Shown piece after piece: positions 1 through 21,353 of a DNA stretch of 21,353 nucleotides. The DNA lies in UHGV virus genome UHGV-0143643; one strand, written 5' to 3'. Position 1 is the first letter of the stretch. Every line of letters starts with the position of its first letter. A model generated the notes under the pieces. The model was given only the letters and a program-made list of their open reading frames with translations, had not been told where the DNA came from and did no database searches. The stretch comes from a virus. Both the position numbers and the translations under genes were made by a program.

Positions 1-49
1 TGTTATTTCGGCAGTTTGCACACATCCTGGCTCATAAAGGAAATTATCA

Positions 50-829
50 ATGAAGATAATCTGCAGATTATTATTGGCGATGGCATGTTTGTGTCTGGCA
101 AACATATCCTGGGCTACTGTTTGTGCAAATAGTACTGGCGTAGCAGAAGATGAACACTATGATCTCTCAAATGTCTTTAATAGCACCAATAACCAGCCAG
201 GGCAGATTGTTGTTTTACCGGAAAAATCCGGCTGGGTAGGTGTGTCAGCAATTTGTCCACCCGGCACGCTGGTGAATTATACATACCGTAGTTATGTCAC
301 CAACTTTATTGTTCAGGAAACTATCGATAATTATAAATATATGCAATTAAATGATTATCTATTGGGTGCGATGAGTCTGGTTGATAGCGTGATGGATATT
401 CAATTTCCCCCGCAAAATTATATTCGTATGGGAACAGATCCTAACGTTTCGCAAAACCTTCCGTTCGGGGTGATGGATTCTCGTTTGATATTTCGTTTAA
501 AGGTTATTCGGCCCTTTATTAACATGGTGGAGATCCCCAGACAGGTGATGTTTACCGTGTATGTGACATCAACGCCTTACGATCCGTTGGTTACACCTGT
601 TTATACCATTAGTTTTGGTGGCCGGGTTGAAGTACCGCAAAACTGCGAATTAAATGCCGGGCAGATTGTTGAATTTGATTTTGGTGATATCGGCGCATCG
701 TTATTTAGTGCGGCAGGTCCGGGTAATCGACCTGCTGGTGTCAATACGACTCAACGTCGCTGGATTGACTTGAACACCCGCAGCAACATGCTGCAAAGTG
801 AAACCATGCGCCTTACGCACATTTCGTAA
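50..829 (+). CDS. sfmH: Fimbrial adhesin SfmH-like, N-terminal (signal peptide + lectin domain) portion. The frame looks authentic only to about 742; the tail to the stop at 829 is read-through into phage immunity-region DNA.
   Basis: Signal peptide MKIICRLLLAMACLCLANISWA; FimH-like layout (mature start TVCANSTG, VPQNCELNAGQIVEFDFGDIG resembling FimH GGCDVSARDVTVTLPDYPG). The C-terminus ...TMRLTHIS lacks the usual fimbrial terminal beta-strand, so it is truncated. Confidence 0.7.
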   Translation: MKIICRLLLAMACLCLANISWATVCANSTGVAEDEHYDLSNVFNSTNNQPGQIVVLPEKSGWVGVSAICPPGTLVNYTYRSYVTNFIVQETIDNYKYMQLNDYLLGAMSLVDSVMDIQFPPQNYIRMGTDPNVSQNLPFGVMDSRLIFRLKVIRPFINMVEIPRQVMFTVYVTSTPYDPLVTPVYTISFGGRVEVPQNCELNAGQIVEFDFGDIGASLFSAAGPGNRPAGVNTTQRRWIDLNTRSNMLQSETMRLTHIS

Positions 830-841
830 TGGTGATTGCAT
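743..841 (-). CDS. Cro-like XRE-family HTH protein, 5' portion (first 33 codons) separated from its 3' portion by the inversion junction; the uninterrupted minus-strand ORF runs 704..841
   Basis: Minus-strand ATG at 841-839 preceded by GGAGGG; translation MQSPLRNVRKAHGFTLQHVAAGVQVNPATLSRI is a textbook HTH N-terminus. After about 743 the frame continues into antisense sfmH sequence (DTSRSITRTCRTK, stop). Confidence 0.55.
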
Positions 842-855
842 ATGCCCTCCAAATA

Positions 856-932
856 TTGCGCGTTATGCATGTTATTTCACGCAATTATTTTGCGCAAGTT
901 GATTTGCTTATCACGCAATAAAGAAATGTAAT
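856..932. promoter_or_regulatory. Immunity-region operator/promoter cluster (O_R-like): divergent promoters for the cI-like gene (plus) and cro-like gene (minus) with repeated CGCAA/TTGCG half-sites
   Basis: Half-sites TTGCG 856-860, CGCAA 880-884, TTGCG 890-894, CGCAA 914-918 (perfect dyad CGCAA-N5-TTGCG at 880-894). Plus strand TTGCTT(904-909)-N17-TGTAAT(927-932) ends about 7 nt before the cI ATG (leaderless-type). Minus strand TTGCGC-N17-TAACAT lies upstream of the cro ATG. Confidence 0.5.
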
Positions 933-938
933 AAACGC

Positions 939-1631
939 ATGAACATAGGAAACCGAGTCAGACAACTTCGCCAAGCGAAGAACATGAAAATCGCCGATCT
1001 CGCTGAAGCAATAGGAGTAGATGCGGCGAACATCTCGCGCTTAGAAACGGGTAAGCAAAAACAATTTACCGAACAAACACTGAGTAATATTGCCAAGAGC
1101 TTAGGTGTTGATATTGCTGATCTCTTTACCTCTGCCCACAAAAGTAATACTGTATATAAAAACAGTAATAATGAGGATGTTGCGCAGGTGAAGGATGTGT
1201 TCCGTATTGAAATGCTGGATATCAGTGCCAGTGCGGGAAATGGCCTTATCCAGGGCGGTGATGTCATTGATGTGATTCATGCCATTGAATACAGAACTGA
1301 TAATGCTGTATCGATGTTTGGTGGACGACCAGCAAATCACATTAAAGTTATCAACGTTCGTGGGGACAGTATGTGTCCAACCATTGAGCCAGGAGATCTC
1401 ATCTTCGTTGATGTCAGCATCAATCAGTTTGATGGTGATGGTATATATGTCTTTGGTTTTGATGACAAAATATACGTTAAAAGACTTCAAATGATTCCTG
1501 ACAAACTGCTGGTGATTTCTGATAACCAGATTTACCGTGAATGGGGAATTACTAGCGAAAACGAACACCGATTCATGGTCTTTGGAAAGGTCTTAATCAG
1601 TCAGTCGCAAACCCTTAAGAGACATAATTAA
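939..1631 (+). CDS. Phage repressor, cI-like (N-terminal XRE HTH + C-terminal S24 LexA-like autopeptidase)
   Basis: HTH motif LRQAKNMKIADLAEAIGVDAANISRLETGK; S24 catalytic Ser in VRGDSMCPTI and Lys in YVKRL; sits at a divergent operator region. Confidence 0.9.
   Translation: MNIGNRVRQLRQAKNMKIADLAEAIGVDAANISRLETGKQKQFTEQTLSNIAKSLGVDIADLFTSAHKSNTVYKNSNNEDVAQVKDVFRIEMLDISASAGNGLIQGGDVIDVIHAIEYRTDNAVSMFGGRPANHIKVINVRGDSMCPTIEPGDLIFVDVSINQFDGDGIYVFGFDDKIYVKRLQMIPDKLLVISDNQIYREWGITSENEHRFMVFGKVLISQSQTLKRHN
1148..1167. promoter_or_regulatory. Near-consensus LexA (SOS) box TACTGTATATAAAAACAGTA, located inside the cI-like coding sequence
   Basis: Matches CTGT-N8-ACAG with TA flanks and an all-A/T core; palindromic ends ACTGT/ACAGT. 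Confidence 0.45.
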
Positions 1632-1650
1632 CCTCAATATCCCATCCATC

Positions 1651-1672
1651 GGCCACCGAAAGGTGGCTTTTT
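1651..1672 (+). terminator. Rho-independent terminator downstream of the cI-like gene
   Basis: GCCACC-GAAA-GGTGGC hairpin followed by TTTTT, 20 nt after the stop codon. Confidence 0.7.
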
Positions 1673-1685
1673 ACTACCTATAAAT

Positions 1686-1722
1686 TTGCATACCTCGCAA
1701 ATATCACTTACATATCTCGCAA
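1686..1722 (+). promoter_or_regulatory. pL-like early-left promoter with O_L-like operator half-sites
   Basis: TTGCAT(1686-1691)-N17-TACATA(1709-1714); CGCAA half-sites at 1696-1700 and 1718-1722 of the same type as next to the repressor start. Confidence 0.45.
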
Positions 1723-1886
1723 TTTAATTTTATCTTTTGTTCCAGACCAACTACAGGATTACAACAAAATCTGGTTGCAACACGGTGCATGTGTCGTAAG
1801 CAGTCAGTAAATGTCAAAAACGAACAGGCAGGACGCCCACGAAGTAGCCGCCTGGGGCATATGAAGTCCAGGATGATTCGTTAGCA

Positions 1887-1911
1887 ACAAAAAAGCGCCC
1901 TACAGGACGCT
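1887..1911 (-). terminator. Rho-independent terminator for the minus-strand gene 1951..2442
   Basis: On the minus strand GCGTCC-TGTA-GGGCGC hairpin followed by TTTTTT, about 40 nt downstream of the stop. Confidence 0.6.
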
Positions 1912-1950
1912 TAGCTCTTTAGCAATCTGGATATCCACAACAGTAGTAAT

Positions 1951-2442
1951 CTACAGATTGCCGTTAAGTTTTCTGGACAACTCCTCAATGGATGGAGGCG
2001 ATACGTAATCCGGATTTTTATTCATCAGAAACTTATTTTCACAGTGGAGGCACCTGCTTTTATGAAAAAGCTCATCTTCGCTAACCGGGAATGGTTGAAG
2101 TATCGATACTATCTTTTGTCCAAAACATTTTGGGCAAAGATGCATGGTTATGCTGCCACCGTTCACGATTACCTCCTTCGAGTATACAAAAGTACCCGAC
2201 TCAAGTTGGTTAAGGATATAGCCTTCCGTCTGAGCCTCAAAGTTTTCGAATTCTGCAATTTTAGCTTTGAGAGAAGCATTTATTTCTTGATAAGAGCCCA
2301 CCAGTTCAACGAGAGACACGCATTCGCGCTGAATAGACGCAAGCTTTGAGTTCAGCTCACCAATAGCCGCATTTACTTCAGCTTGAGTTTTTGCCTCGTT
2401 CATTAGTTTTGCAATCTGGGCTGTTTCACGAATAGCCGTCAT
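1951..2442 (-). CDS. Hypothetical moron protein: N-terminal coiled-coil plus C-terminal MqsA/YgiT-like zinc ribbon (CPKC ... CLHCENKFLMNK); convergent with the repressor gene. Alternative GTG start at 2466.
   Basis: The long ORF 1951..2730 has an Arg/Pro-rich low-complexity N-terminal extension that reads antisense through GC-rich structured DNA, so the start is placed at ATG 2442 (MTAIRET...). Heptad-like N-terminal half; C-terminal CxxC-N24-CxHCE motif resembles the MqsA N-terminal zinc domain (CPVC ... CVHCEESIMNK). Own terminator present. Confidence 0.75.
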   Translation of the reverse strand: MTAIRETAQIAKLMNEAKTQAEVNAAIGELNSKLASIQRECVSLVELVGSYQEINASLKAKIAEFENFEAQTEGYILNQLESGTFVYSKEVIVNGGSITMHLCPKCFGQKIVSILQPFPVSEDELFHKSRCLHCENKFLMNKNPDYVSPPSIEELSRKLNGNL

Positions 2443-2480
2443 TGCTGCCGTTAATTCAGCGATCACATTGAATACTCTTA

Positions 2481-2528
2481 TTGTTGTTGGGGATATCCAG
2501 ATTAACCGAATCCTTGTTGTTGGGGAAT
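2481..2528. repeat. Two direct copies of TTGTTGTTGGGGA (2481-2493 and 2516-2528; 35-bp period) immediately upstream of the minus-strand gene start
   Basis: Exact 13-bp direct repeat seen in the sequence; position suits a regulatory binding site. Confidence 0.5.
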
Positions 2529-2680
2529 AACCAGGTCCACCTCGCCTGATGTGGCTAAAAGCAGGCACATAACAGCTAAGTATTTTCAACCAGAGAGAAT
2601 CCTTAGCGTTGTGGTGAATGCGGCTCAGCGCACGCGGGTTAAGGTTGAGGCTGACAGTCGACCTTCTGTGGATACCCCCC

Positions 2681-2726
2681 CGCCTGGTGTGCAACCTTCG
2701 CCAGGCACCGGGAGGCACCCGGCACC
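2681..2726 (+). promoter_or_regulatory. GC-rich structured leader element (two stem-loops, triple GGCACC repeat) upstream of the terminator in the early-left transcript
   Basis: Hairpin GCCTGG(2682-2687)/CCAGGC(2701-2706); hairpin CCGGG(2708-2712)/CCCGG(2718-2722); GGCACC at 2704, 2714 and 2721. Confidence 0.3.
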
Positions 2727-2753
2727 ACAACTTTATGCTGTGTGTAGTCCTGG

Positions 2754-2800
2754 CGGTACCAGTTTGTACCCTTGCTTCCGGCTGGTACCGTCCTTTTTTG
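2754..2800 (+). terminator. Strong rho-independent terminator in the early-left leader, upstream of the YfdP-like gene
   Basis: CGGTACCAG(2754-2762) pairs with CTGGTACCG(2782-2790), followed by TCCTTTTTTG; three GGTACC-type palindromes allow alternative pairings. Confidence 0.6.
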
Positions 2801-2936
2801 CAAAACAGAGAAGAGCATCACCGGACGACGGGCTCATAACCCAATCCATCCGGGCGGCTGCCACCGCAGGTGTTCTTCTCTGTTTTGTGGAGAAACCAAC
2901 CGACCTTGCAGGGTCGATATGATGAGGAGCAGCAAA

Positions 2937-3299
2937 ATGGCTAGCGAACGCAGTACTGATGTGCAGGCATTTATCGGGGAGCTGGACGGCGGCGTATTTG
3001 AAACCAAAATCGGCGCAGTTCTCAGTGAGGTCGCTTCCGGTGTGATGAACACGAAAACCAAAGGGAAGGTCTCACTCAATCTGGAAATCGAACCGTTTGA
3101 TGAGAACCGTGTGAAAATCAAACACAAACTCTCATATGTTCGCCCAACTAACCGCGGGAAAATTTCCGAAGAAGACACCACCGAAACGCCGATGTATGTC
3201 AATCGCGGTGGTCGCCTGACTATTCTGCAGGAAGACCAGGGACAATTACTGACTCTTGCCGGTGAACCTGACGGAAAACTCCGCGCAGCAGGTCATTAA
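2937..3299 (+). CDS. Phage early protein, YfdP-like (120 aa)
   Basis: ATG 2937 preceded by GAGGAG; the longer ORF from 2772 is an upstream extension through the terminator. Size and order match the CPS-53 yfdP-yfdT block as recalled. Confidence 0.75.
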   Translation: MASERSTDVQAFIGELDGGVFETKIGAVLSEVASGVMNTKTKGKVSLNLEIEPFDENRVKIKHKLSYVRPTNRGKISEEDTTETPMYVNRGGRLTILQEDQGQLLTLAGEPDGKLRAAGH

Positions 3300-3364
3300 T
3301 ATCGTTTTTAATAAACTGATTATTTCTCTCATCACTGAATATTTTTATATAGTGAGGACTTATT

Positions 3365-4189
3365 ATGTCTCAGAACTTAGACGCAACCGCAATTAATCAA
3401 ATCCATGCCCTTATTTCTGCTCAGGGTGTTAATGAAATTATCAGTAAGATTGGTGCCGATGCTGTGGCATTGCCTGAGAATTTCCGCATTCATGATCTGG
3501 AAAAATTTAATTTAAATCGCTTCCGTTTCCGTGGTGCGCTTTCCACTGCCAGCATCGATGACTTTACCCGTTATTCTAAAGATCTTGCAGATGAAGGCAC
3601 CCGCTGCTTTATCGATGCCGATAATATGCGAGCCGTCAGTGTGCTTAACCTGGGTACTATTGATGAACCAGGTCACGCAGATAACACTGCCACTCTCAAA
3701 CTGAAAAAGACAGCACCGTTCTCTGCTCTGTTGTCTGTTAACGGCGAGCGTAACTCCCAGAAGTCACTGGCAGAATGGATCGAAGACTGGGCCGACTACC
3801 TTGTGGGCTTTGATGCTAATGGTGACGCCATTCAAGCAACAAAAGCGGCTGCGGCAGTCCGTAAAATCACGATTGAAGCAAACCAGACCGCTGATTTTGA
3901 AGATAATGACTTCAGCGGCAAACGCTCCCTGATGGAGTCTGTCGAAGCGAAGACCAAAGACATTATGCCAGTGGCATTTGAATTTAAATGCGTTCCGTTT
4001 GAAGGTCTGAAAGAACGTCCGTTTAAATTACGCCTCAGCATTATCACTGGCGATCGTCCTGTACTGGTTCTGCGCATTATTCAGCTGGAAGCGGTGCAGG
4101 AAGAAATGGCTAACGAATTTCGTGATCTGCTTGTTGAGAAATTCAAAGACAGCAAAGTAGAAACCTTTATTGGTACTTTCACCGCCTGA
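3365..4189 (+). CDS. Phage early protein, YfdQ-like (DUF2303-type, 274 aa)
   Basis: Clean 274-aa ORF in operon context; family assignment from memory. Confidence 0.8.
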
Positions 4190-4316
4190 TTTCATTACTG
4201 CAAATGCCCCTGCGGGGGCATTTATGGAAACGTAATTAACTCAATAATCACCGGATGGTGAGGGCTTCCTTTTACCAGAATTCAGCGCGGTGCAGTGCAT
4301 ATACGTGGAGAACAAA

Positions 4317-4853
4317 ATGTCATTTATTAAAACTTTTTCCGGGAAGCATTTTTATTATGACAAGATAAATAAAGACGACATCGATATTAACGATATCGCG
4401 GTTTCCCTTTCAAATATCTGTCGCTTTGCCGGTCATCTTTCGCACTTCTACAGCGTCGCCCAACATGCGGTTCTTTGCAGCCAGCTGGTGCCGCAGGAAT
4501 TTGCTTTTGAAGCGTTAATGCATGATGCAACAGAAGCGTATTGCCAGGATATTCCCGCTCCACTGAAACGCCTTCTTCCTGACTATAAACGGATGGAAGA
4601 AAAAATAGACGCCGTAATCCGTGAGAAATACGGGTTACCCCCGGTTATGAGCACGCCTGTGAAATATGCCGATCTCATCATGCTGGCAACCGAACGCCGC
4701 GATCTCGGGCTTGATGATGGCTCTTTCTGGCCTGTACTGGAAGGCATCCCGGCAACAGAGATGTTCAACGTGATTCCACTGGCACCGGGTCATGCCTACG
4801 GGATGTTTATGGAACGTTTTAACGATTTATCGGAGTTACGCAAATGCGCATGA
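4317..4853 (+). CDS. HD-domain phosphohydrolase, YfdR-like 5'-deoxynucleotidase (178 aa)
   Basis: Start MSFIKTF with GGAGAA RBS (the ORF track starts 27 nt earlier); H...HD motif (AGHLSHF ... LMHDATEAY). Confidence 0.8.
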   Translation: MSFIKTFSGKHFYYDKINKDDIDINDIAVSLSNICRFAGHLSHFYSVAQHAVLCSQLVPQEFAFEALMHDATEAYCQDIPAPLKRLLPDYKRMEEKIDAVIREKYGLPPVMSTPVKYADLIMLATERRDLGLDDGSFWPVLEGIPATEMFNVIPLAPGHAYGMFMERFNDLSELRKCA

Positions 4854-5206
4854 ATGTTTTCGAAATGGAAGGGTTTCTTCGCGGGAAATGTGTACCGCGA
4901 GATCTGAAAGTGAATGAAACAAATGCTGAGTACCTGTTACGTAAATTCGACGCGCTTGAAGCTAAATGTGCGGCACTGGAAAACAAAATAATACCAGTGT
5001 CAGCTGAACTGCCACCAGCAAATGAAAGTGTTCTGTTATTTGATGCTAACGGAGAAGGCTGGCTGATTGGCTGGCGTTCTCTCTGGTACACCTGGGGACA
5101 AAAAGAAACCGGAGAATGGCAGTGGACATTTCAGGTCGGGGACCTTGAAAACGTCAATATCACTCACTGGGCAGTAATGCCAAAAGCACCGGAGGCTGGA
5201 GCATAA
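4844..5206 (+). CDS. Phage early protein, YfdS-like (120 aa)
   Basis: Start overlaps the upstream stop; ORF is translationally coupled on both sides. Confidence 0.75.
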   Translation: MRMNVFEMEGFLRGKCVPRDLKVNETNAEYLLRKFDALEAKCAALENKIIPVSAELPPANESVLLFDANGEGWLIGWRSLWYTWGQKETGEWQWTFQVGDLENVNITHWAVMPKAPEAGA

Positions 5207-5511
5207 TGACCACATTTACCAATAAAGAACTGATTAAAGAAATCAAAGAACGAATCAGCAGCCTAGAGGTTCGAGACGATATTGAGCGCCGTGCTTATGA
5301 AATCGCACTCGTATCTCTGGAAGTAGAGCCAGATGAACGCGAAGCCTATGAATTATTCATGGAAAAGCGTTTCGGTGACTTAGTAGATCGTCGGAGAGCA
5401 AAAAACGGCGATAACGAATACATGGCATGGGATATGACTCTCGGTTGGATCGTCTGGCAGCAACGAGCTGTTATCCATTTTTCAACAATGACACAGCAAG
5501 AGGTGAAATAA
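5206..5511 (+). CDS. Phage early protein, YfdT-like (101 aa)
   Basis: TAATG overlap with the upstream gene and with the downstream xis-like start. Confidence 0.75.
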   Translation: MTTFTNKELIKEIKERISSLEVRDDIERRAYEIALVSLEVEPDEREAYELFMEKRFGDLVDRRRAKNGDNEYMAWDMTLGWIVWQQRAVIHFSTMTQQEVK

Positions 5512-5882
5512 TGGAGCCATACAGCCTCACACTCGATGAGGCCTGTCAGTTTCTTCAGATATCCAGACCAACCGCCACCAACTGGATACGAACAGGCCGC
5601 CTACAGGCAACACGTAAAGATCCAACCAAGCCAAAATCTCCTTACCTCACAACACGGCAAGCCTGCATTGCGGCGCTTCAGTCTCCGCTGCATACTGTCC
5701 AGGTGAGCGCGGGTGATGGCATAACAGAGGAAAGAAAATGTCACTCTTCCGCAGAGGTGAAATATGGTACGCCTCGTACTCGCTCCCGGGCGGGAAGCGA
5801 ATTAAGGAGTCTCTTGGCACAAAGGACAAGCGGCAAGCTCAGGAGTTGCACGACAAGCGAAAAGCAGAACTCTGGCGAGTAG
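5511..5882 (+). CDS. Excisionase / AlpA-like HTH protein; the 3' end is uncertain and the frame overlaps the integrase start by about 145 nt
   Basis: [31 protein letters not shown] is an AlpA/Xis-type HTH; position immediately upstream of int. Confidence 0.5.
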
Positions 5883-6901
5883 AAAAGCTAGGGGATTTAC
5901 CTGATGTCACTTTTGAAGAGGCCTGCCTAAGATGGCTTGAGGAAAAGGCTGATAAAAAATCTCTCGATTCAGATAAAAGCCGGATTGAGTTCTGGCTTGA
6001 ACATTTTGAGGGTATAAGGCTTAAAGATATCTCGGAGGCAAAGATTTACTCTGCTGTAAGCAGAATGCATAACAGAAAGACGAAAGAAATATGGAAACAG
6101 AAAGTTCGGGCCGCCATCAGGAAAGGTAAAGAACCGCCTGTTTATGAACCAAAGCCAGTATCAACTCAGACAAAGGCAAAGCATCTTGCCATGATAAAGG
6201 CCATTCTCCGTGCTGCAGAACGCGACTGGAAGTGGCTGGAAAAAGCGCCTGTCATCAAGATACCAGCGGTCAGAAACAAGCGAGTCAGATGGCTGGAAAA
6301 GGAGGAAGCAAAACGCCTTATTGATGAGTGCCCCGAACCACTGAAATCTGTCGTCAAGTTTGCGCTGGCAACTGGTCTGAGAAAGTCGAACATCATAAAT
6401 CTGGAATGGCAACAAATCGACATGCAGCGACGAGTTGCCTGGGTGAATCCAGAAGAGAGCAAATCAAACCGCGCCATTGGTGTGGCGCTGAACGATACCG
6501 CCTGTAAAGTGTTGCGTGATCAAATAGGCAAGCATCACAAATGGGTGTTTGTACATACCAAGGCGGCTAAGCGAGCAGATGGAACATCAACGCCTGCGGT
6601 CAGGAAGATGCGCATCGACAGCAAGACATCATGGCTATCAGCTTGTCGTCGTGCAGGAATTGAAGATTTCCGTTTCCATGACCTCAGACACACCTGGGCA
6701 AGCTGGCTGATTCAGTCAGGCGTCCCATTATCAGTGCTTCAGGAAATGGGCGGATGGGAGTCCATAGAAATGGTTCGTAGGTATGCTCACCTTGCGCCTA
6801 ATCATTTGACAGAGCATGCGAGGAAAATAGACGACATTTTTGGTGATAATGTCCCAAATATGTCCCACTCTGGAATTATGGAGGATATAAAGAAGGCGTA
6901 A
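5738..6901 (+). CDS. int: Tyrosine-type site-specific integrase (lambda/DLP12 IntD-like, 387 aa)
   Basis: N-terminus [34 protein letters not shown]; catalytic-region motifs [10 protein letters not shown] and RRYAHL; stop 16 nt from the tRNA 3' end. Confidence 0.95.
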
Positions 6902-6916
6902 CTGATTGAATTGTAA

Positions 6917-6993
6917 TGGCGCGCCCTGCAGGATTCGAACCTGCGGCCCACGACTTAGAAGGTCGTTGCTCTATCCAACTGAGCTAAGGGCGC
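6917..6993 (-). tRNA. argU: tRNA-Arg (anticodon UCU), argU-type; its 3' end abuts the integrase gene (prophage attachment site)
   Basis: Cloverleaf read by hand: acceptor GCGCCCU/AGGGCGC, D-arm GCUC/GAGC, anticodon stem ACGAC/GUCGU with loop CUUCUAA, T-arm GCAGG-UUCGAAU-CCUGC, encoded CCA. Confidence 0.95.
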
Positions 6994-7235
6994 GTTGATA
7001 CCGCAATGCGGTGTAATCGCGTGAATTATACGGTCAACCCTTGCTGAGTCAATGGCTTTTGATCTGGTTGCTGAACAAGTGAACGACCGCGTCTGATTTT
7101 CTGATTTATTTCGCTATAGCGGCAAACAAACGCACACCGCTGCGCGTCTGAATCAAGAAAACCCGTATTTTCATGTATCAAAGTACAATTTACCGCCCTA
7201 ACGGAAAATTGTCCGCTCCTATGAGACTGGTAACT

Positions 7236-7868
7236 ATGAAACCAACGTCGGTGATCATTATGGATACTCATCCTATCATCAGAATGTCTATTGAAGTTCT
7301 GTTGCAAAAAAACAGTGAATTGCAGATTGTCCTGAAAACGGATGATTACCGCATAACCATCGATTATCTCCGAACCCGTCCTGTTGATTTAATCATTATG
7401 GATATAGACTTGCCCGGAACAGACGGTTTTACCTTCCTGAAAAGGATCAAACAAATCCAGAGCACAGTGAAAGTATTATTTTTATCATCGAAATCAGAAT
7501 GCTTTTATGCTGGCAGAGCGATACAAGCTGGTGCTAACGGTTTTGTCAGTAAATGCAATGATCAGAATGATATTTTTCATGCCGTTCAGATGATCCTCTC
7601 CGGATACACTTTTTTTCCCAGCGAAACGCTCAACTATATAAAAAGCAATAAATGTAGTACGAATAGTTCAACGATCACTGTGCTATCTAATCGTGAAGTG
7701 ACGATATTACGTTATCTGGTCAGCGGATTATCTAATAAAGAAATTGCCGATAAGTTATTACTTAGCAATAAAACAGTTAGCGCGCATAAATCTAATATTT
7801 ATGGCAAGCTAGGTTTGCATTCAATTGTAGAGCTCATCGACTACGCCAAATTATATGAATTAATATAA
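7236..7868 (+). CDS. fimZ: LuxR/NarL-family response regulator FimZ (210 aa)
   Basis: Receiver domain with DLIIMDIDLPGTDG; C-terminal LuxR HTH (LSNREVTILRYLVSGLSNKEIADKL); recognised as FimZ. Start set at MKPTSVIIMD; the ORF track begins 63 nt upstream. Confidence 0.95.
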   Translation: MKPTSVIIMDTHPIIRMSIEVLLQKNSELQIVLKTDDYRITIDYLRTRPVDLIIMDIDLPGTDGFTFLKRIKQIQSTVKVLFLSSKSECFYAGRAIQAGANGFVSKCNDQNDIFHAVQMILSGYTFFPSETLNYIKSNKCSTNSSTITVLSNREVTILRYLVSGLSNKEIADKLLLSNKTVSAHKSNIYGKLGLHSIVELIDYAKLYELI

Positions 7869-7870
7869 TA

Positions 7871-8386
7871 TTAATTATAATTGATCATAAATATCGCATC
7901 CGCTTTCGCCACACCTGGCCGAACACCGCTGGCTAACGCTCGATAATTGGCAAAAAAGTTTAGTGTGACATTGCCATTTGCATCAACTTCCTCAGTCGGG
8001 CTCGCCTCCCCCAGTGCGAGCCGGGAGCGATCGCTATTACGTAATTCGATGGCGACGGTTTGTGCCATTGCGGGATCATCCAGAGCCAGCAGGTTGGCAT
8101 CAGATGCCGGCGTTCCCGTAAATAAAATCGCAACTGAACCCGGAGGACATCCCTCCAGCCGCAGGCTAAAAGGGACGAGTGCCGTGGTATCGCCAGCGTT
8201 CAGTAGTTGTGTCGTAGGCCATCTGCCTAAATCTACCGTCTTATCAATATCCGCTGTGTTTACGGTACAGGAGAAATCAACAACGTTACCGTGCAAATTG
8301 ATATTAATCGTTCCTAAAGGGTCAGCTGCCCATCCACTGGAACTCCACAGTAACCCGCAGAAACAGCTAAAGAATACTCTTCTCAT
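7871..8386 (-). CDS. sfmF: Minor fimbrial subunit SfmF (171 aa)
   Basis: Signal peptide MRRVFFSCFCGLLWSSSGWA; fimbrial C-terminus ...AIFMINYN; convergent with fimZ. The longer ORF to 8581 overlaps the sfmH 3' part and was trimmed. Confidence 0.9.
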   Translation of the reverse strand: MRRVFFSCFCGLLWSSSGWAADPLGTININLHGNVVDFSCTVNTADIDKTVDLGRWPTTQLLNAGDTTALVPFSLRLEGCPPGSVAILFTGTPASDANLLALDDPAMAQTVAIELRNSDRSRLALGEASPTEEVDANGNVTLNFFANYRALASGVRPGVAKADAIFMINYN

Positions 8387-8396
8387 TCTCCGTACC

Positions 8397-8711
8397 TCAT
8401 TGATAATCGACGCGTAAATACCCCAGCGCGCTAAACGGCGCTTCGGTCGGTTTTTGACCGGTAATACTGATAGGCCAGGCGCGAAGTGTGACATTGGCTG
8501 CCGCAGCTGCATCCAGACGGAAAGGAATAACGCTATTGAGATCGTTAGGCGTGATCGGCGTATCGTTCTGATCGGCGACAATAAAACCTAAATCCTGATT
8601 GTCCGACACCATCGCCTGACCAGAAACGGCACTGGCTTCCAGACGCATTGTTAAATAAGCCTGCGCAGCAACATTCGTACATTTGACCGCAATGCTCTTG
8701 GTTTGCGGCAT
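8397..8711 (-). CDS. sfmH: Fimbrial adhesin SfmH-like, C-terminal pilin-domain portion, detached from the 5' portion at 50..742
   Basis: KSIAVKCTNVAAQAYL resembles FimH LTVYCAKSQNLGYYL; ends with the fimbrial-type terminal strand ...GYLRVDYQ; sits directly upstream of sfmF as in the sfm operon. Confidence 0.75.
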   Translation of the reverse strand: MPQTKSIAVKCTNVAAQAYLTMRLEASAVSGQAMVSDNQDLGFIVADQNDTPITPNDLNSVIPFRLDAAAAANVTLRAWPISITGQKPTEAPFSALGYLRVDYQ

Positions 8712-8873
8712 GAGAGGCTGGAGCAGATTCCATCTATCGAGCTTGCAGAACGTTTAGCCAATTTTTTTAAGGGTGAAGTCAGCGAAATGCAGATTCTTTA
8801 TCCGGCACGTTTTCAATCTAGCCAAAACCAGAATGGGTTTAAACCACAGGAACAGGAGGTGAACCGTGGGTAA
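8712..8873 (+). CDS. Cro-like HTH protein, 3' portion (53 codons); joined to minus-strand 841..743 it gives an 86-aa XRE-family protein
   Basis: The frame from 8712 reads ERLEQIPSIELAERLANFFKGEVSEM..., which continues the HTH begun on the minus strand (...ATLSRI + ERLEQIPSIELAERLA); its stop overlaps the next gene's start. Confidence 0.5.
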   Translation, partial: ERLEQIPSIELAERLANFFKGEVSEMQILYPARFQSSQNQNGFKPQEQEVNRG

Positions 8874-9417
8874 GCATCACTGGAAAGTAGAAAAACAGCC
8901 TGAGTGGTACGTGAAAGCTGTCAGAAAAACTATCGCAGCGTTGCCGGGGGGGTACGCTGAAGCTGCTGACTGGCTGGATGTAACAGAGAACGCATTATTT
9001 AACCGCCTTCGTGCCGATGGCGATCAGATTTTCCCGCTGGGATGGGCAATGATTTTGCAACGTGCTGGTGGAACTCACTTCATTGCTGACGCTGTGGCGC
9101 AGTCTGCAAATGGCGTCTTTGTGTCTCTTCCTGATGTCGAGGATGTGGACAACGCCGATATCAACCAACGCCTGCTGGAAGTCATTGAACAGATCGGCAG
9201 TTATTCAAAACAGATTCGTTCAGCAATTGAAGACGGTGTAGTGGAACCGCATGAGAAGACAGCAATTAACGATGAGCTGTACCTCTCAATTTCGAAGCTG
9301 CAGGAGCATGCAGCACTGGTCTACAAAATCTTTTGCGTTTCAGAAAGTAGTGACGCCCGCGAGTGTGCAGCTCCGGGCGCCTTGGCGTGTCGTGACTGTG
9401 GAGAAACTAACGCATGA
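8866..9417 (+). CDS. Phage early regulatory protein in the cII position (CII/YdaT-like; Cys-rich C-terminus); GTG start
   Basis: AGGAGG RBS 8 nt upstream of GTG 8866; first gene of the rightward early operon. Family assignment is tentative. Confidence 0.75.
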
Positions 9418-9752
9418 ACAGTTTAACAACACACTACCGTCGCTCGCAACTGATTGCGCTTCCTGTACCGGGTGGAAAAGCGAAGGTGGAGTATTGCTAT
9501 GCAGTAAATGTACCAGGTGACAGGGAAATTGTAACCCACAGCTTTGCAGAGTGGGCTGTGGGTGATTTCAACCGGCAGAAGGAGACAGTCCTTTGCGACA
9601 AGTTAACCGCTGGTTCAAAGATCACTACGGAGTGCCCGTCAGAGTCATTCGTTGGGAGCCGGAAACACAACGTGTTATCTACCTCCGCGAAGGCTATGAG
9701 CATGAGTGCTTCAGCCCGCTCGAACAGTTTCGTCGTAAATTCAGGGAAATAG
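9414..9752 (+). CDS. Hypothetical phage protein; the C-terminal half is low-complexity and may reflect a frameshift
   Basis: ATGA overlap with the upstream stop (translational coupling); the second half is Ser/Ala-rich while an alternative frame looks more protein-like. Confidence 0.45.
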
Positions 9753-9772
9753 AGGTCGGTCATGAGCACTAA
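9593..9772 (+). CDS. Alternative-frame ORF (TTG start, AAGGAG RBS) overlapping the 3' half of 9414..9752: either a separate small gene or the true C-terminus of a frameshifted upstream gene
   Basis: AAGGAG at 9579-9584, TTG at 9593; translation ...[58 protein letters not shown] is compositionally normal. Confidence 0.35.
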
Positions 9773-10703
9773 ATTAACCGGCTATGTATGGGATGGTTGC
9801 GCTGCATCAGGCATGAAATTATCCAGCGTGGCAATTATGGCCCGCCTGGCTGATTTCAGTAATGACGAAGGTGTGTGCTGGCCATCAATTGAAACCATTG
9901 CCCGCCAGATTGGCGCGGGGATGAGTACCGTCAGAACGGCTATCGCACGGCTGGAAGCAGAAGGCTGGTTAACGCGTAGGGCGCGTCGCCAGGGTAACCG
10001 CAATGCGTCGAATGTTTATCAGCTTAACGTTGCGAAGCTTCAGGCAGCGGCATTTTCTCAACTGTCAGATTCTGACCCGTCAAAATCTGACGCATCAAAA
10101 TCTGACCCGTCAAAATTTGATGCGTCGAAATCTGGCAAAAAAGCGGGTTTTCACCCGTCAGAATCTGGTGGGGATCCGTCAGTAAAATCAAAACATGATC
10201 CGTCAGATAAAAAAACTTCTCGTCCGGACGCTTCGCAACCGGACACGCAGACGGCTGAACAGGATTTTTTAACTCGCCATCCTGATGCGGTTGTATTCAG
10301 CCCTAAAAAGCGCCAGTGGGGGACGCAGGATGATTTGACCTGCGCACAGTGGCTCTGGAAAAAAATCATCGCCCTGTACGAGCATGCCGCCGAATGTGAC
10401 GGCGAGGTGGTTCGTCCCAAAGAACCGAACTGGACAGCCTGGGCAAACGAAATTCGCCTGATGTGTGTGCAGGATGGTCGTACTCATAAACAAATCTGCG
10501 AGATGTACAGCCGCGTCAGTCGCGATCCGTTCTGGTGCCGTAACGTGCTCAGCCCGTCGAAGCTGCGGGAAAAATGGGATGAGCTTTCCCTGCGCTTATC
10601 GCCGTCCGTCAGCACGTACACCGAAAAACGCGAAGACCCGTACTTCAAAGCCAGTTACGACAACGTGGACTACAGCCAGATCCCGGCAGGATTCAGGGGG
10701 TGA
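9762..10703 (+). CDS. Phage replication initiation protein (O-like; N-terminal winged-HTH) with the iteron array embedded in its coding sequence
   Basis: N-terminal HTH (PSIETIARQIGAGMSTVRTAIARLEAEGWL); internal SDPSK/SDASK peptide repeats encoded by DNA iterons. Confidence 0.85.
   Translation: MSTKLTGYVWDGCAASGMKLSSVAIMARLADFSNDEGVCWPSIETIARQIGAGMSTVRTAIARLEAEGWLTRRARRQGNRNASNVYQLNVAKLQAAAFSQLSDSDPSKSDASKSDPSKFDASKSGKKAGFHPSESGGDPSVKSKHDPSDKKTSRPDASQPDTQTAEQDFLTRHPDAVVFSPKKRQWGTQDDLTCAQWLWKKIIALYEHAAECDGEVVRPKEPNWTAWANEIRLMCVQDGRTHKQICEMYSRVSRDPFWCRNVLSPSKLREKWDELSLRLSPSVSTYTEKREDPYFKASYDNVDYSQIPAGFRG
10071..10210. repeat. Iteron array (about six 15-bp repeats, TCTGACCCGTCAAAA family) followed by an A-rich tract; putative phage replication origin inside the O-like gene
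   Basis: Tandem copies at 10071, 10086, 10101 and 10116 with degenerate copies to about 10205, then an A-run at 10206-10212; same architecture as the lambda origin within gene O. Confidence 0.6.
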
Positions 10704-10705
10704 TC

Positions 10706-11194
10706 ATGAGTCTTTTGAATGACGTTCAGAAATTCATTGAAGCCCATCCGGGGTGTACTTCCGGAGACATTGCGGATGCTTTTGCAGGTTACTCACGACA
10801 GCGCGTTCTGCAGTCAGCAAGCAAGTTACGTCAGAGTGGGCGTGTGGCTCACCGTTGTGAAGGGGATACACGCAGACATTTCCCGCGGCTGACTGAGATA
10901 CCGCAGGAGCCGGAACCGCAACCAGTTCGTGAATCCAGACCTGTGCGCAATTTCTATGTCGGCACTAACGATCCCCGGGTGATTTTGTGCCTGACCCGCC
11001 AGGCGGAAGAACTGGAGTCCAGGGGCTTATACCGTCGTGCTGCAACGGTGTGGATGGCGGCATTCCGTGAAAGCCACTCCCAGCAAGAGCGAAACAATTT
11101 TCTTGCGCGTCGTGAGCGGTGTTTACGGAAAAGCAGCAAGCGCGCTGTATCGGGTGAAGAGTGGTATCTGTCAGGGAATTACGTGGGGGCTTAA
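10706..11194 (+). CDS. Transcriptional regulator with a PerC-like C-terminal motif (162 aa)
   Basis: AEELESRGLYRRAATVWMAAFRESHSQQERNNFLARRERCL resembles the PerC/Pch family signature as recalled; N-terminal half is wHTH-like. Confidence 0.65.
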   Translation: MSLLNDVQKFIEAHPGCTSGDIADAFAGYSRQRVLQSASKLRQSGRVAHRCEGDTRRHFPRLTEIPQEPEPQPVRESRPVRNFYVGTNDPRVILCLTRQAEELESRGLYRRAATVWMAAFRESHSQQERNNFLARRERCLRKSSKRAVSGEEWYLSGNYVGA

Positions 11195-11520
11195 TGACGA
11201 CGTTAACTCAATGCCAGCAGCAGGTGCTGGATATGCTGATTTCTTACCAGAAAGAACGTGGCTTCCCGCCAACCAATCAGGAGGTGGCTACCATGCTGGG
11301 ATACCGTTCAGTGAATGCAGCGGTGGAGCATCTTCGCGCACTGGAGAAAAAAGGCGTCATCACGATAAAGCGTGGCGTGGCCCGGGGCATCACGCTTCAT
11401 ACCGCGGTGAAGGACGACGACAGCGAGGTGGCCGGGATTATCCGCGCACTGCTTGCTGGTGAGGAAAACGCCAGGCTGCGTGCAGCCCACTGGTTACATG
11501 AGAGGGGGCTGAAAGTATGA
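11194..11520 (+). CDS. LexA N-terminal DNA-binding-domain homologue lacking the S24 peptidase domain (108 aa)
   Basis: Aligns by eye with the LexA DBD: LTQCQQQVLDML...GFPPTNQEVATMLGYRSVNAAVEHLRALEKKGVI against LexA LTARQQEVFDLI...[34 protein letters not shown]. TAATG coupling to the upstream gene. Confidence 0.8.
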   Translation: MTTLTQCQQQVLDMLISYQKERGFPPTNQEVATMLGYRSVNAAVEHLRALEKKGVITIKRGVARGITLHTAVKDDDSEVAGIIRALLAGEENARLRAAHWLHERGLKV

Positions 11521-11906
11521 AGCTGATTCTGCCTTTTCCACCCAGCGTGAACACCTACTGGCGACACCCCAACAAAGGGGCATTTGCTGGTAAGAGCCTG
11601 ATAAGCGCGGCGGGGCGAAAATTCCAGAGTGCGGCGTGCACAGCAATAGTTGAGCAGTTACGTCGTCTGCCGAAACCAACGTCGGCACCTGCTTCAGTGG
11701 AGATCGTGTTGTTTCCTCCGGATAACCGGATCCGCGATCTGGACAACTATAACAAGGCGCTGTTTGACGCCCTGACCCACGCGGGTGTGTGGGAAGACGA
11801 CAGCCAGGTGAAAAGAATGCTGGTGGAGTGGGGACCGGTTATCCCGGAAGGGAAGGTCGAGATCACTATCAGTAAGTACGAGAAAACGGCGGGTGCAGCC
11901 GCCTGA
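11517..11906 (+). CDS. RusA-family Holliday-junction resolvase (129 aa)
   Basis: Motif DNRIRDLDNYNKALFDALTHAGVWEDD matches RusA RRDLDN...AAFDALTKAGFWLDD; ATGA start overlap. Confidence 0.9.
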   Translation: MKLILPFPPSVNTYWRHPNKGAFAGKSLISAAGRKFQSAACTAIVEQLRRLPKPTSAPASVEIVLFPPDNRIRDLDNYNKALFDALTHAGVWEDDSQVKRMLVEWGPVIPEGKVEITISKYEKTAGAAA

Positions 11907-11925
11907 TCAAGAGGAGAAACGAAGT

Positions 11926-12723
11926 ATGAATAATCTGATGGTCATTGATGGTATTGAAGTTCGTCGTGATGCTTATGGGCGTTACAGCCTGAACGATCTG
12001 CACAGGGCTGCCGGTTCTCTGGATAAGCATAAGCCTGCATTCTGGCTCCGCAATGAGCAAACTGAACGTTTAATAAGCGAGTTGCAGATTTGCAACTCGG
12101 TCAATATAGAGCCAGTTAACGTTATTCGTGGCGGAAATAACCAGGGGACGTATGTCTGCAAAGAACTGGTGTATGCCTATGCAATGTGGATCAGCCCGTC
12201 ATTCCATCTGAAGGTGATCCGTACTTTCGATATGGTAACCAGCGCATCGGAAAAATTATCCGGGCAGGCTGCTGACAAGATGCAGGCTGGCGTGATTCTG
12301 CTGGACTTTATGCGCCGGGAGTTAAACCTGTCTAACTCTTCAGTGCTTGGTGCCTGTCAGAAACTCCAGGAGGCTGTTGGCTTACCGAATCTGGCACCGC
12401 GCTATGCCATTGATGCTCCTGCTGACGCGCCTGATGGCTCAAGCCGTCCCACGCTGTCACTGAGTGCACTGCTGAAGCAGTATGGTATCCGCCTGACAGC
12501 TAACCAGGCATATCACCAGATGGTGAAGCTGGGGATCGTCGAGCAGCGCGAACGATACAGCCGTACCGCGATTAACAACATCAAAAAATTCTGGTCGCTG
12601 ACAGCGAAAGGCTGCATGTTCGGCAAGAACATCACCAGTCCTGCAAATCCGCGCGAGACGCAGCCGCATTTCTTCGAATCCCGATTCCCTGAGCTGTTAA
12701 AGCTGCTCGATACCGTTCATTGA
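11926..12723 (+). CDS. KilA-N domain protein (antirepressor-like)
   Basis: Start MNNLMVIDG with GAGGAG RBS (the ORF track starts 33 nt earlier); N-terminal KilA-N-type region (YVCKELVYAYAMWISPSFHLKVIRTF). Confidence 0.8.
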   Translation: MNNLMVIDGIEVRRDAYGRYSLNDLHRAAGSLDKHKPAFWLRNEQTERLISELQICNSVNIEPVNVIRGGNNQGTYVCKELVYAYAMWISPSFHLKVIRTFDMVTSASEKLSGQAADKMQAGVILLDFMRRELNLSNSSVLGACQKLQEAVGLPNLAPRYAIDAPADAPDGSSRPTLSLSALLKQYGIRLTANQAYHQMVKLGIVEQRERYSRTAINNIKKFWSLTAKGCMFGKNITSPANPRETQPHFFESRFPELLKLLDTVH

Positions 12724-12724
12724 G

Positions 12725-13720
12725 GTGACCGTGAGAGCACTACTGACCCCTGAAATTGCCCCGCGTATGGGGATCGTATTGTTCAGGCCCGGTTCAGAGC
12801 TGATGCCCCTGTTTATGCAGGGGCGTGTACTGCTGGAGCCTGAGCCGGAGCATTATTCATCTTTCGCCAGTGGTGCCGTTCCCGCGGCATCACAACCGCT
12901 GGCGGATGATCCTGCCGTTCGGGCCGTGTTCCGTAATGAGGCAGTGATTCGTCGTGCTGGTGGGGTGGAATGTCTTGAAAGCTGGTTACTTCGTGAAAAA
13001 GGCTGCCAGTGGCCTCATTCCGACTGGCACAGCGAGAACATGACCACAATGCGACACGCGCCGGGCGCAATCCGTCTGTGCTGGCACTGCGATAATCAGT
13101 TACGTGATCAGTTCACGGAGCGGCTGGAATCAATGGCAACGGATAACTGTGCCCATTGGGTGTTGTCTGTAGTCCGTCGGGATCTCGATTTTAATGATAA
13201 CCATGCCGTGACAATGCCGGAACTGTGCTGGTGGCTGGTTCGTAATGACCTGGCGGATGCCTTACCGGAAAGCGCAGCCCGTAAGGCACTGAGATTACCG
13301 AAGTCTGTTTTGCCGTCTGTCACCCGGGAAAGTGACCTTGTGCCTTCGGTTCCTGCCACCAGCATTATCCAGGATAAAGCGAAAAAGGTGCTGGCGCTGA
13401 AAGTGGATCCGGAGTCGCCGGAGTCTTTTATGTTACGCCCCAAACGTCGTCGCTGGGTTAATGAACAGTACACGCGCTGGGTTAAGACGCAGCCGTGTGC
13501 ATGTTGTGGAAAGCCAGCTGATGATCCGCATCATCTGATAGGCCATGGTCAGGGTGGAATGGGTACAAAAGCGCATGACCTTTTTGTGCTGCCTTTGTGC
13601 AGAAAACACCACGACGAACTGCATGCGGATACCGTGGCATTTGAAGAGAAGTATGGCTCCCAGCTGGAGCTGATATTTCGTTTTATCGATCGCGCACTGG
13701 CGATTGGTGTGCTGGCCTAA
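12725..13720 (+). CDS. DUF968-type phage protein with a C-terminal HNH-like Cys/His motif (YdfU-like); GTG start
   Basis: C-terminal [43 protein letters not shown]; typical nin-region gene. Confidence 0.8.
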
Positions 13721-13737
13721 TTTTGTGGAGAAAGTTA

Positions 13738-14121
13738 ATGCGTGATATTCAGATGGTTCTTGAACGTTGGGGAGCGTGGGCGGCTAATAATCATGAAGAT
13801 GTGACCTGGTCGTCCATTGCCGCCGGTTTTAAGGGATTAATTCCTTCAAAAGTAAAATCTCGCCCGCAATGTTGTGACGATGACGCGATGATCATTTGCG
13901 GGTGCATGGCCCGTCTGAAAAAGAACAACAGCGATTTGCACGATTTATTAGTAGATTATTATGTAGTCGGTATGACATTCATGTCACTGGCAGGTAAGCA
14001 TTGCTGCTCTGATGGTTATATCGGGAAAAGGTTACAGAAGGCTGAGGGCATAATTGAAGGGATGTTAATGGCATTAGATATCCGGTTAGAGATGGATATC
14101 GTTGTTAATAACTCTAATTAA
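13738..14121 (+). CDS. quuD: Late-gene antiterminator Q (phage 82 / DLP12 QuuD type, 127 aa)
   Basis: [36 protein letters not shown]... recognised as QuuD-like; GGAGA RBS 6 nt upstream of ATG 13738 (the ORF track starts at TTG 13723). Confidence 0.9.
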
Positions 14122-14140
14122 TATGCCAATTGTTTACTGA

Positions 14141-14310
14141 AAGTTATTAAAAATGGGGCGTTGCAACGCCCCCAAAAATAAAGGGTAATATATAACAGAA
14201 GGTTTATATAGTTAGAAGCAAGGTTGTGCTCCTAAAGGAAGTGGCTTGAGGGAGCCACTTATATGTTGGGGAGGCAACGCCTCCCGCAACATATCTTTTT
14301 CGTAATCAGA
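14141..14310 (-). ncRNA. ipeX: Candidate IpeX-like sRNA region in the nmpC 3' flank, ending in the minus-strand terminator at 14141..14173
   Basis: Minus-strand hairpin GGGGGCGTTGCAACGCCCC followed by ATTTTT, plus two further hairpins at 14240-14285; recalled that DLP12 encodes the IpeX sRNA next to nmpC. Boundaries not determined. Confidence 0.3.
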
Positions 14311-15408
14311 TTAGAACTGGTAAACCAGACCTACAGCAACGATGTCATCAGTGCTTACACCGAGTGCTTTAGTGAAGTCATTTTTGTCAAGCAGGTTGAT
14401 TTTGTAATCAACGAAAGTAGACATATTTTTGTTGAAGTAATAGGTTGCACCTACATCAACATATTTGACTAAGTCCTGATCGCCCCATACTCCAAGATCC
14501 TTACCTTTAGATTGCAGGTAAGCAACGGACGGACGCAGACCGAAATCGAACTGATATTGTGCAACAGCTTCGAAGTTTTGAGCTTTATTAGCAACGAAGT
14601 GATCAGCAAATACAGTCATATTCTGGGTTTCAGAATAGGTAGTGGCCAGGTAAATGTTGTTAGCGTCATATTTCAGACCTGCGGCCCAAACTTCTGCATT
14701 TTTACCGGAAGCAAATACTTCAGGAAGAACTTTCCCTGCATTAACTTGAGTGTCGGTACGATCAGATTTCGCATAAGTTGCACCGATACCGAATCCTTCG
14801 TATTCATAGGTAGCAGAGAAACCGAAGCCATCACCGTTACCTTCGGTGTAGTTATCGAAATCGCTACGATCGTTTTTGCCTTGGTACTGAGCAGCAAAGT
14901 TCAGACCATCAACCAGACCAAAGAAGTCGTTGTTACGATAGGTTGCAACACCAGTGGTGCGACCAGTCATGAACACATCTGTTTGGGTCCAGGTATCGCC
15001 ACCGAATTCTGGCAGAACGTCAGTCCACGCACCGATGTCGTATGCTACACCGTAGTTACGGCCGTAATCGATTGAGCCGTAGTCACCGAATTTCAGGCCT
15101 GCAAATGCAAGACGGGTTTTGTCTTTGGAGGAACCTTGAGATTCAGCGCGGTTGCCTTTGAATTCATATTCCCACTGACCGAAACCAGTCAGCTGATCGT
15201 TGATTTGGGTTTCGCCTTTGAAGCCCAGACGAACATAAGTAGTATCACCATCATCTGCATCGTTAGAGGAAAAGTAGTGCTTGGCATTAACTTTCCCGTA
15301 CAGATCCAGCTTGTTACTGTCTTTATTATAAATTTCAGCTGCCTGAGCAGACATCGCCATCAGTACTGATGCAGCTACAGCAGAAATTGCCACTGTTAAT
15401 TTTTTCAT
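14311..15408 (-). CDS. nmpC: Outer-membrane general porin NmpC (OmpC/OmpF family), intact 365-aa precursor
   Basis: Signal peptide [23 protein letters not shown]; porin hallmarks including C-terminal ...VAVGLVYQF; sits between Q and the holin, opposite strand. Confidence 0.95.
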
Positions 15409-15910
15409 CGTGAGCCCTTTTTTTTGAACTATTATTAAAAAATGATGTCACTGCGCGATAAATATTCATCTAATCAATGTGATTATTTCAAGATGTAAGT
15501 TTTAGTTTCTCATTTAATTTGTGAAGTAGATCTCTATTTTTATCTGAACTTTTTCTATCGAAACCTATTTATGGCTCTTATTTGAACAAAAATAAATCTA
15601 TTAGCTAATTTATATTAATGGCTGTTATTTATGGTGGTTCTATAATTCGTCTGTTTAATTTAAACCAGCTAAAAATAACACTTGAAATTATTTATTGGTT
15701 ATTTGTTGAAGTTTTCTTATGTATTTGTGGTGATGTTTTGAACACTCGGTAGCATTCTCATAAATATCATTCAGTGGTTTACGTACGTAAAAAATTGGTT
15801 ATGCTGTTAAGAGTGGTTACTTCGTCACACAGCTTAAACCCGCCGTCGAGCTGGTTTTTCCATTTTTTGAGTCTCGATATTAGCTGATAACTCAATACCT
15901 GAGTTATTCA

Positions 15911-15943
15911 CTGACTCGGAGTCAGTTACGTTTCTGCTTTTTT
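15911..15943 (+). terminator. Hairpin CTGACTC-G-GAGTCAG followed by a T6 run upstream of the holin; possible tR'-like element
   Basis: Perfect 7-bp palindrome at 15911-15925 with TTTTTT at 15938-15943; spacing to the T-run is longer than ideal. Confidence 0.3.
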
Positions 15944-15996
15944 GCGATACGTTGTATTCCCTCAATTTACACCCGCTTTGTCTGCGAGGTGGGGTT

Positions 15997-17167: not shown

Positions 17168-17198
17168 AGCTGACCATATCGATGGGCAACTCATGCAA

Positions 17199-20580: not shown

Positions 20581-20594
20581 TCATTGGGATTATG

Positions 20595-21303: not shown

Positions 21304-21353
21304 GTTATAGTTTTATTTGTGAATTAAATCAATTATGGCGATGAATTACAAGG

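Follow-up and report, generated by a model that had tools for sequence, protein, structure and literature searches.

The viral genome UHGV-0143643 was analysed as a stretch of 21,353 nucleotides (the window), which contains a DLP12-type lambdoid prophage of Escherichia coli at the tRNA gene argU together with flanking host DNA. The data make it very probable that the window carries a real inversion of about 8 kb, which arose once by a single reciprocal illegitimate exchange and has been inherited clonally in one E. coli lineage that includes the isolates KTE112 and KTE193. The inverted block (743..8711; 7,969 bp) contains the prophage left arm, three host genes (argU, fimZ, sfmF) and the 3' portion of sfmH. 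One junction lies in sfmH and the other in the prophage gene cro as these genes are arranged in the non-inverted state, and each of the two genes is consequently found in two pieces on opposite strands.

When the window is compared by BLAST with the non-inverted region of E. coli RM10809-3 (locus L001), it divides into three segments: 1..743 (plus strand), 741..8713 (minus strand) and 8711..19483 (plus strand). Reverse-complementing 743..8711 converts these into one gapless alignment over 1..19483 (19,483 bases, 99.589% identity), with no base gained or lost at either junction. A first-pass annotation, made from the letters of the window alone, had proposed that this block of 7,969 bp is inverted; the gapless collinearity with the reference bears this out, and all of the coordinates hold. 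The breakpoints map at 742/743 and 8711/8712, as had been expected of such an alignment, within an overlap of 3 bases, and the boundaries of the block can equally be written as 741..8713, 742..8712, 743..8711 or 744..8710. Re-inversion also restores the order sfmH-sfmF-fimZ-argU-int...cI/cro-cII...Q, which had been put forward as the canonical one and which is seen in the annotated reference. In 163 complete genomes the block joins both flanks without a break in its reverse-complemented form, the opposite orientation to that in the window.

The sfmH gene is broken after codon 231. Its 5' fragment (codons 1-231; 50..742, plus strand), taken from the list of open reading frames (ORFs), runs on into antisense cro to give a chimeric ORF (50..829) of 259 amino acids, the last 28 of which are antisense cro, and its 3' fragment (codons 232-335; 8397..8711, minus strand) is called as an orphan protein of 104 amino acids. 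The cro gene is broken after codon 33. The 5' fragment (codons 1-33; 743..841, minus strand) retains the ribosome-binding site and the PR side of the operator region, and the 3' fragment (codons 34-86; 8712..8873, plus strand) has neither a promoter nor a start codon of its own. The restored SfmH has 335 amino acids, 331/335 being identical to the reference protein, and the restored Cro has 86 (86/86 identical), in agreement with the lengths first predicted for both. No reference SfmH found here ends in ...TMRLTHIS; that tail is antisense cro. The break in sfmH lies inside the Pfam Fimbrial (pilin) domain (residues 187-335) and that in cro inside the HTH_3 domain (residues 5-56), and the predicted SfmH and Cro proteins are both truncated inside their domains. 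The earlier statement that both genes are inactivated fits these breaks but understates the effects on the prophage, whose right operon would no longer be coupled to PR and whose attL would be inverted with respect to attR.

In the public annotation of KTE112 and KTE193 the pieces of sfmH are entered as two 'protein sfmH' records, of 259 and 104 amino acids. The deposition of one gene as two separate SfmH proteins is an annotation trap.

Distribution of the junctions and the carrier clone

The junctions were searched for in 5,426 complete RefSeq E. coli genomes by megablast, using two 800-base queries centred on the junctions. More than 4,400 genomes gave matches, each of which breaks exactly at the junction positions, and 0/5,426 genomes covered at least 80% of either query. 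Taken alone, this absence favoured an artefact, in which the source genome would be in the normal order and both junctions would exist only in silico as a result of assembly, scaffolding or construction. The junctions are also blunt, with merely 3 bp of common sequence, which points in the same direction. Exact-protein look-ups overturned that reading. The chimera of 259 amino acids, with junction 1 inside it, has entries in 182 blocks of a public assembly collection, and the orphan 104-amino-acid C-terminal fragment of SfmH, bounded by junction 2, in 165 blocks; both are found on 81-82 public contigs, the longest of which is 5.15 Mb. Both proteins have GenBank records from E. coli KTE112 (ELC91651.1 for the chimera and ELC91640.1 for the fragment) and from E. 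coli KTE193 (ELI33360.1 and ELI33088.1, respectively).

Additionally, both junction 60-mers are present exactly in five carrier loci (L002-L006) that elsewhere show 20-70 substitutions relative to the window, and the inverted gene order is identical in all five. These loci come from three European Nucleotide Archive (ENA) assemblies, with contig names in the MEGAHIT style (k141_), the SPAdes style (NODE_) and as scaffold_, and from NCBI GCA_026280245.1. The six carrier loci examined are in the inverted state only, and the other collapsed look-up places have the same neighbouring genes. Because the exact junctions recur across independent assemblies, and because a 3-bp repeat cannot mislead an assembler or cause ambiguity in an assembly graph, the inversion is genuine and inherited rather than the artefact of one assembly. 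An origin in silico is very improbable given that the same junctions are found in two GenBank isolates and about 80 contigs from different pipelines, that they are exact in five loci otherwise separated by 20-70 single nucleotide polymorphisms (SNPs), and that the carriers belong to one host clone, as expected of an inherited mutation. The first-pass annotation had offered illegitimate recombination or an artefact as explanations. The former stands, and the latter is contradicted by the recurrence of the junctions, base for base, in the two GenBank isolates and several independently assembled public contigs.

The evidence for a single clone comes from the host DNA. Over the 10 kb of host flank from purK to sfmD, two carriers are identical and a third differs by one SNP and one 12-bp indel; the carriers are one clone. 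The only complete genome in which this flank is 100% identical (9,990/9,990) is that of Res13-Sevr-PER07-33 (L007, NZ_CP062811.1), from a pig; the next best is 99.6%. At positions 30001-33295 of this locus the run sfmH-sfmF-fimZ-argU is intact and envY comes immediately after argU, so that the attachment site is empty. Host sequence in the window agrees with this genome at 743/743 bases (region 1..743) and 1,798/1,799 bases; within the block, host homology starts at 6915, immediately beyond the argU 3' end. Judging from the empty site, the presence of the prophage is polymorphic within a very narrow clonal frame. Taken together, the identical flank and the empty site suggest that within this frame the prophage was gained by the carrier lineage or lost by its sister, and that the carriers suffered the inversion.

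Literature searches (KTE112/KTE193; sfmH inversion prophage; inversion microhomology prophage breakpoints) found no description of the event. The two junctions provide an exact, clone-specific marker that is detectable in metagenomes.

Sequence of the breakpoints and nature of the exchange

Base-by-base comparison shows that junction 1 (741..743) is the trinucleotide TCA, which is common to both parental sequences, and that junction 2 (8711..8713) is TGA, its reverse complement. Adjacent BLAST segments have 3 bases in common at both junctions, which therefore share a 3-bp inverted microhomology, TCA/TGA. The parental sites are otherwise unrelated across 40 bp on either side, and a search of 1..10500 found no inverted repeats of at least 14 nt at the junctions. 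The first-pass annotation had seen neither an inverted repeat nor microhomology here; there is indeed no longer inverted repeat, but the 3-bp microhomology exists. Microhomology of at least 3 bp is expected by chance at approximately 5% of random reciprocal junctions, and its presence at these breakpoints is suggestive at most.

There are no resolvase, invertase or transposase families among the Pfam annotations of the genes called in the window (1..21353) and in the carrier and related loci. This agrees with the earlier statement that no invertase gene is present, as no gene called was annotated with the Resolvase/invertase family. There is no insertion sequence (IS) element at the breakpoints and no transposase gene in the window, and the only recombinase called in the window is the prophage integrase, whose site is argU. 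The long inverted repeats required for inversion by homologous recombination (between IS elements, rrn operons or prophages) are lacking at both breakpoints. What is found is a pair of unique, unrelated breakpoint sequences with a 3-bp overlap at each, as in events of the illegitimate or microhomology type. The unique and unrelated partners, the 3-bp identity, the reciprocal and loss-free product, the lack of an IS element, long repeat or invertase, and the distance of the integrase site are together the signature of illegitimate recombination. Microhomology-mediated, RecA-independent rearrangement is established in E. coli, and the assays for it include the formation of lambda-bio transducing phage between a prophage and flanking host DNA (PMC2621351).

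We propose that a DLP12-type lambdoid prophage would have been resident at argU before the exchange. A single reciprocal illegitimate (non-homologous) exchange would then have taken place between TCA in the host gene sfmH, at a site 1.7 kb beyond attL, and an identical trinucleotide in the opposite strand of the prophage's cro, and all of the DNA between the partners would have been flipped with no base lost or gained. The product would be an inversion and not an excised circle because the partner sites are in inverted orientation. Because the junctions are loss-free, we favour conservative break-and-rejoin over the joining of two resected double-strand breaks, and infer an enzymology of the topoisomerase/gyrase type or another reciprocal strand swap.

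There is a minor but appreciable chance that the same inversion arose through two double-strand breaks with microhomology-dependent alternative end-joining, or through replication template switching. The 3 bp of microhomology at both junctions would suit either process, as would a second microhomology event in the same prophage, the deletion with an overlap of about 7 bp at 19477-19483. Against end-joining, no base has been lost or gained at either junction, which is unusual for the resection-dependent joining of four ends; template switching would need to occur twice at the same trinucleotide.

The perfect reciprocity of the exchange and the tyrosine integrase gene within the block could also be reconciled with a programmed, reversible segment, served by a DNA-invertase or a tyrosine recombinase, that has been caught in an 'off' orientation. 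We regard this as most improbable. There are no inverted-repeat recombination sites (3 bp are common and the flanking 40 bp unrelated), the genes called in the window and the carriers include no invertase or resolvase, and the integrase's own site, argU, is more than 1.7 kb from either breakpoint. Both breakpoints lie inside coding sequences, which are destroyed. Additionally, the block is in one orientation in all 163 complete genomes that contain it and in the other in every carrier contig shown.

Two further candidates were discarded. A possible DNA-invertase pseudo-site, AAACCAAG, which resembles a hix-type half-site, lies in the sfmH parental sequence a few bp to the right of the crossover; it is off the crossover and has no partner in cro, no invertase gene is present, and it was set aside. 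The action of Int at secondary att sites was rejected because neither breakpoint resembles the 47-bp argU core.

The prophage and the consequences of the inversion

The int stop codon at 6901, argU at 6917..6993 and the start of host homology at 6915 place the integration at the 3' end of argU. After re-inversion the genes run sfmH, sfmF, fimZ (opposite strand), argU, int (opposite strand), yfdT-yfdP and cI, with cro to Q diverging from cI; past Q there follow an nmpC-type porin gene, the genes for holin, lysozyme and Rz, bor, ybcV, ybcW and ylcI. This is the lambdoid order cI/cro-cII-replication-Q-lysis with the morphogenesis genes missing, and the element is a DLP12-type lambdoid prophage at argU.

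Within the inverted block, an intact cI-type repressor gene (939..1631, plus strand) encodes a helix-turn-helix domain and an S24 self-cleaving peptidase domain (Pfam), and its protein is identical in the window, the carrier L002 and the non-inverted reference. The divergent promoters PRM and PR and their operators are presumed, from the gene layout, to lie in the cI-cro intergenic region (842..938); a sigma-70 consensus scan of 600..1100 returned no promoter-like site. Two overlapping terminator-like hairpins called at 822..805 (minus strand), in the cro 5' fragment, are no more than shuffled sequences give. The early-left genes yfdP, yfdQ, yfdR, a gene for a 120-amino-acid protein and yfdT (2934..5511, plus strand) are co-oriented with int; they are annotated in RM10809-3 and are called genes in L002 and L005. 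The int gene (5738..6901, plus strand) encodes an IntD-type tyrosine integrase (Pfam Phage_integrase, E = 5.5e-47) and is intact, with no internal stop. It is followed by the tRNA-Arg(UCU) gene argU, identified by a tRNA call (6917..6993, minus strand), which is attL. Next are the intact host genes fimZ (7236..7868, plus strand) and sfmF (7871..8386, minus strand), the latter of which now lies apart from the sfmA operon promoter and, from the geometry, would have lost it.

The right operon (8866..14121, plus strand) consists of the cII-like gene (ymfL), an O-like replication gene, perC, a LexA-like gene, rusA, kilA-N, a DUF968 gene and Q, all of which are intact; the cII-like product matches Phage_CP76. 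The lysis cassette of holin, lysozyme and Rz (15997..17167, plus strand) is also intact, as are cI and int. There is no second copy of argU (attR) inside the window. Other strains that share this right arm have, between ompT and envY, a 47-bp copy of the 3' half of argU as their attR.

At 19477-19483 the first approximately 50 nt of nohD (Nu1) are joined, with an overlap of about 7 bp, to the 3' end of a side-tail-fibre gene. This fusion (19433-19996) is a second illegitimate event and creates a fusion ORF of 187 amino acids. The entire head and tail module is deleted by the junction and the prophage is therefore defective.

Some other features of the prophage were observed. Clusters of substitutions specific to the window occur at 1286-1343 (cI), 4550-4658 (yfdR-like) and 5756-5809 (5' end of int), at all of which L002 and the non-inverted reference agree; the cI cluster sets the window apart from all five carrier loci, and its six window-specific substitutions in cI are all synonymous. 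The clusters resemble gene-conversion tracts from a paralogous prophage, and other carriers have further clusters across 3029-5121. In the O-like gene (9762..10703) there are short inverted and direct repeats (GTCAGATTCTGAC..., GACGCATCAAAATCTGAC) at 10064-10167, which coincide with the protein stretch 'DPSKSDASKS'. They resemble an origin of replication of the iteron type that lies within the replication gene itself, the arrangement found in lambda O. The RusA-family resolvase gene (11517-11906; 129 amino acids) is intact, and the near-identical RM10809-3 prophage is annotated with an internal stop there. Between Q and the lysis cassette, an intact nmpC-type porin gene (14311-15408; 365 amino acids) is encoded on the minus strand, opposite to both. 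The inversion leaves this gene and bor (17199-17492) untouched; the two are typical moron genes of lambdoid phages.

From the geometry, the inversion would keep cI, the operators and the cro 5' fragment together as a module, with PR now reading antisense through the sfmH 5' fragment towards sfmD. The arm that carries the cII-like gene, replication, Q and lysis would be cut off from PR and begin with the promoterless cro 3' fragment, so that it should stay untranscribed when cI is cleaved. On the host side, sfmF and the 3' fragment of sfmH would be severed from the sfmA operon promoter, whereas fimZ and argU would keep their own signals. As attL is within the block it would now be inverted with respect to attR, and Int and Xis could at most flip the intervening DNA and never excise it. 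Because excision would be blocked, the right arm is without PR and the head and tail genes are missing, the prophage is probably permanently locked and defective.

A tail-less prophage with a repressor cleavable in the SOS response and an intact route from Q to lysis would be a liability, and the arrangement suggests that the inversion would disarm it. The inversion could thus have been retained by selection, because it disarms a defective prophage that would be lethal on SOS induction, when cleavage of cI would lead to transcription from PR, to Q and finally to holin and lysozyme, and because it keeps the element from being lost. Consistent with this, the cI gene encodes an S24 self-cleavage domain and is under constraint, with six SNPs that are all synonymous. 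The genes for Q, holin, lysozyme and Rz are intact although those for head and tail have been deleted, and the clone in which the inversion is fixed turns up in many samples. However, such fixation, being confined to one clone, may be pure hitch-hiking, similar defective DLP12-type prophages persist without such an inversion, there is no convergent second case, and the positions of PR and the other promoters are deduced only. We therefore consider retention by selection unlikely. Slightly more doubtful again is a selected 'prophage lock', in which one exchange severs PR from replication, Q and lysis, makes inverted repeats of attL and attR and redirects PR antisense into the sfm operon. If this were true, cleavage of cI under SOS would no longer trigger suicidal lysis by a tail-less prophage, Int and Xis could flip the element but never excise it, and expression of the sfm fimbriae would be tied to the SOS response.

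Several points weigh against the interpretation of the window as a clonally inherited illegitimate inversion that locks the prophage. No complete RefSeq E. coli genome has the inversion, and its support comes from draft and metagenome assemblies only. The 3 bp of microhomology is only marginally above chance (approximately 5%), and the junctions do not in themselves reveal the mechanism. The carriers' attR is located beyond the right end of the window, and the attR copy that was seen comes from other strains. The consensus scan found no sigma-70-like site at the presumed positions of PR and PRM.

Comparison with known rearrangements

The inversion is an ordinary one-off structural variant and reveals no new mechanism or system. 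It is of value as a clean natural case of a loss-free reciprocal inversion between a prophage and its host with 3 bp of common sequence, and it suggests that a single rearrangement of small size can fix a prophage in place, silence it and at the same time disrupt a fimbrial adhesin, which could plausibly bear on the domestication of prophages.

The prophage itself is like DLP12 of E. coli K-12 in its attachment site at argU, with int abutting the 3' end of the tRNA gene, in the contents of its right arm (Q, nmpC-type porin, essD-rrrD-rzpD, bor, ybcV, ybcW, ylcI, tail-fibre remnants and ybcY) and in the absence of morphogenesis genes. In contrast with DLP12, it had an intact cI/cro-type immunity region before the inversion and has a yfdP-yfdT-type left arm, and the inversion between sfmH and cro leaves three host genes (argU, fimZ, sfmF) enclosed by the arms of the prophage.

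The event shares with the large inversions that occur between inverted IS elements, rrn operons or prophages the reversal of a chromosomal segment that is then inherited by a lineage. Those inversions arise by homologous recombination between long inverted repeats, whereas the repeat here is of 3 bp and the segment of 8 kb. The Hin, Gin, Cin and Pin systems and the FimB/FimE switches differ from it in having inverted-repeat sites and a dedicated invertase gene, neither of which is present here.

The closest likeness is to the RecA-independent illegitimate recombination of E. coli, which uses short homology or none, as in the aberrant excision of lambda that yields gal and bio specialized transducing phages. 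In both cases one partner site belongs to the prophage and the other to host DNA that lies a few kb past the att site, and the partners have a few bp of common sequence and no IS element or site-specific site (PMC2621351). The differences are that the sites are inverted in the present case, giving an inversion in place and not an excised circle with host genes, and that the product is fixed in a natural clone and was not recovered by laboratory selection. The inversion may have arisen during an abortive induction, as the inverted-topology counterpart of the formation of a specialized transducing phage.

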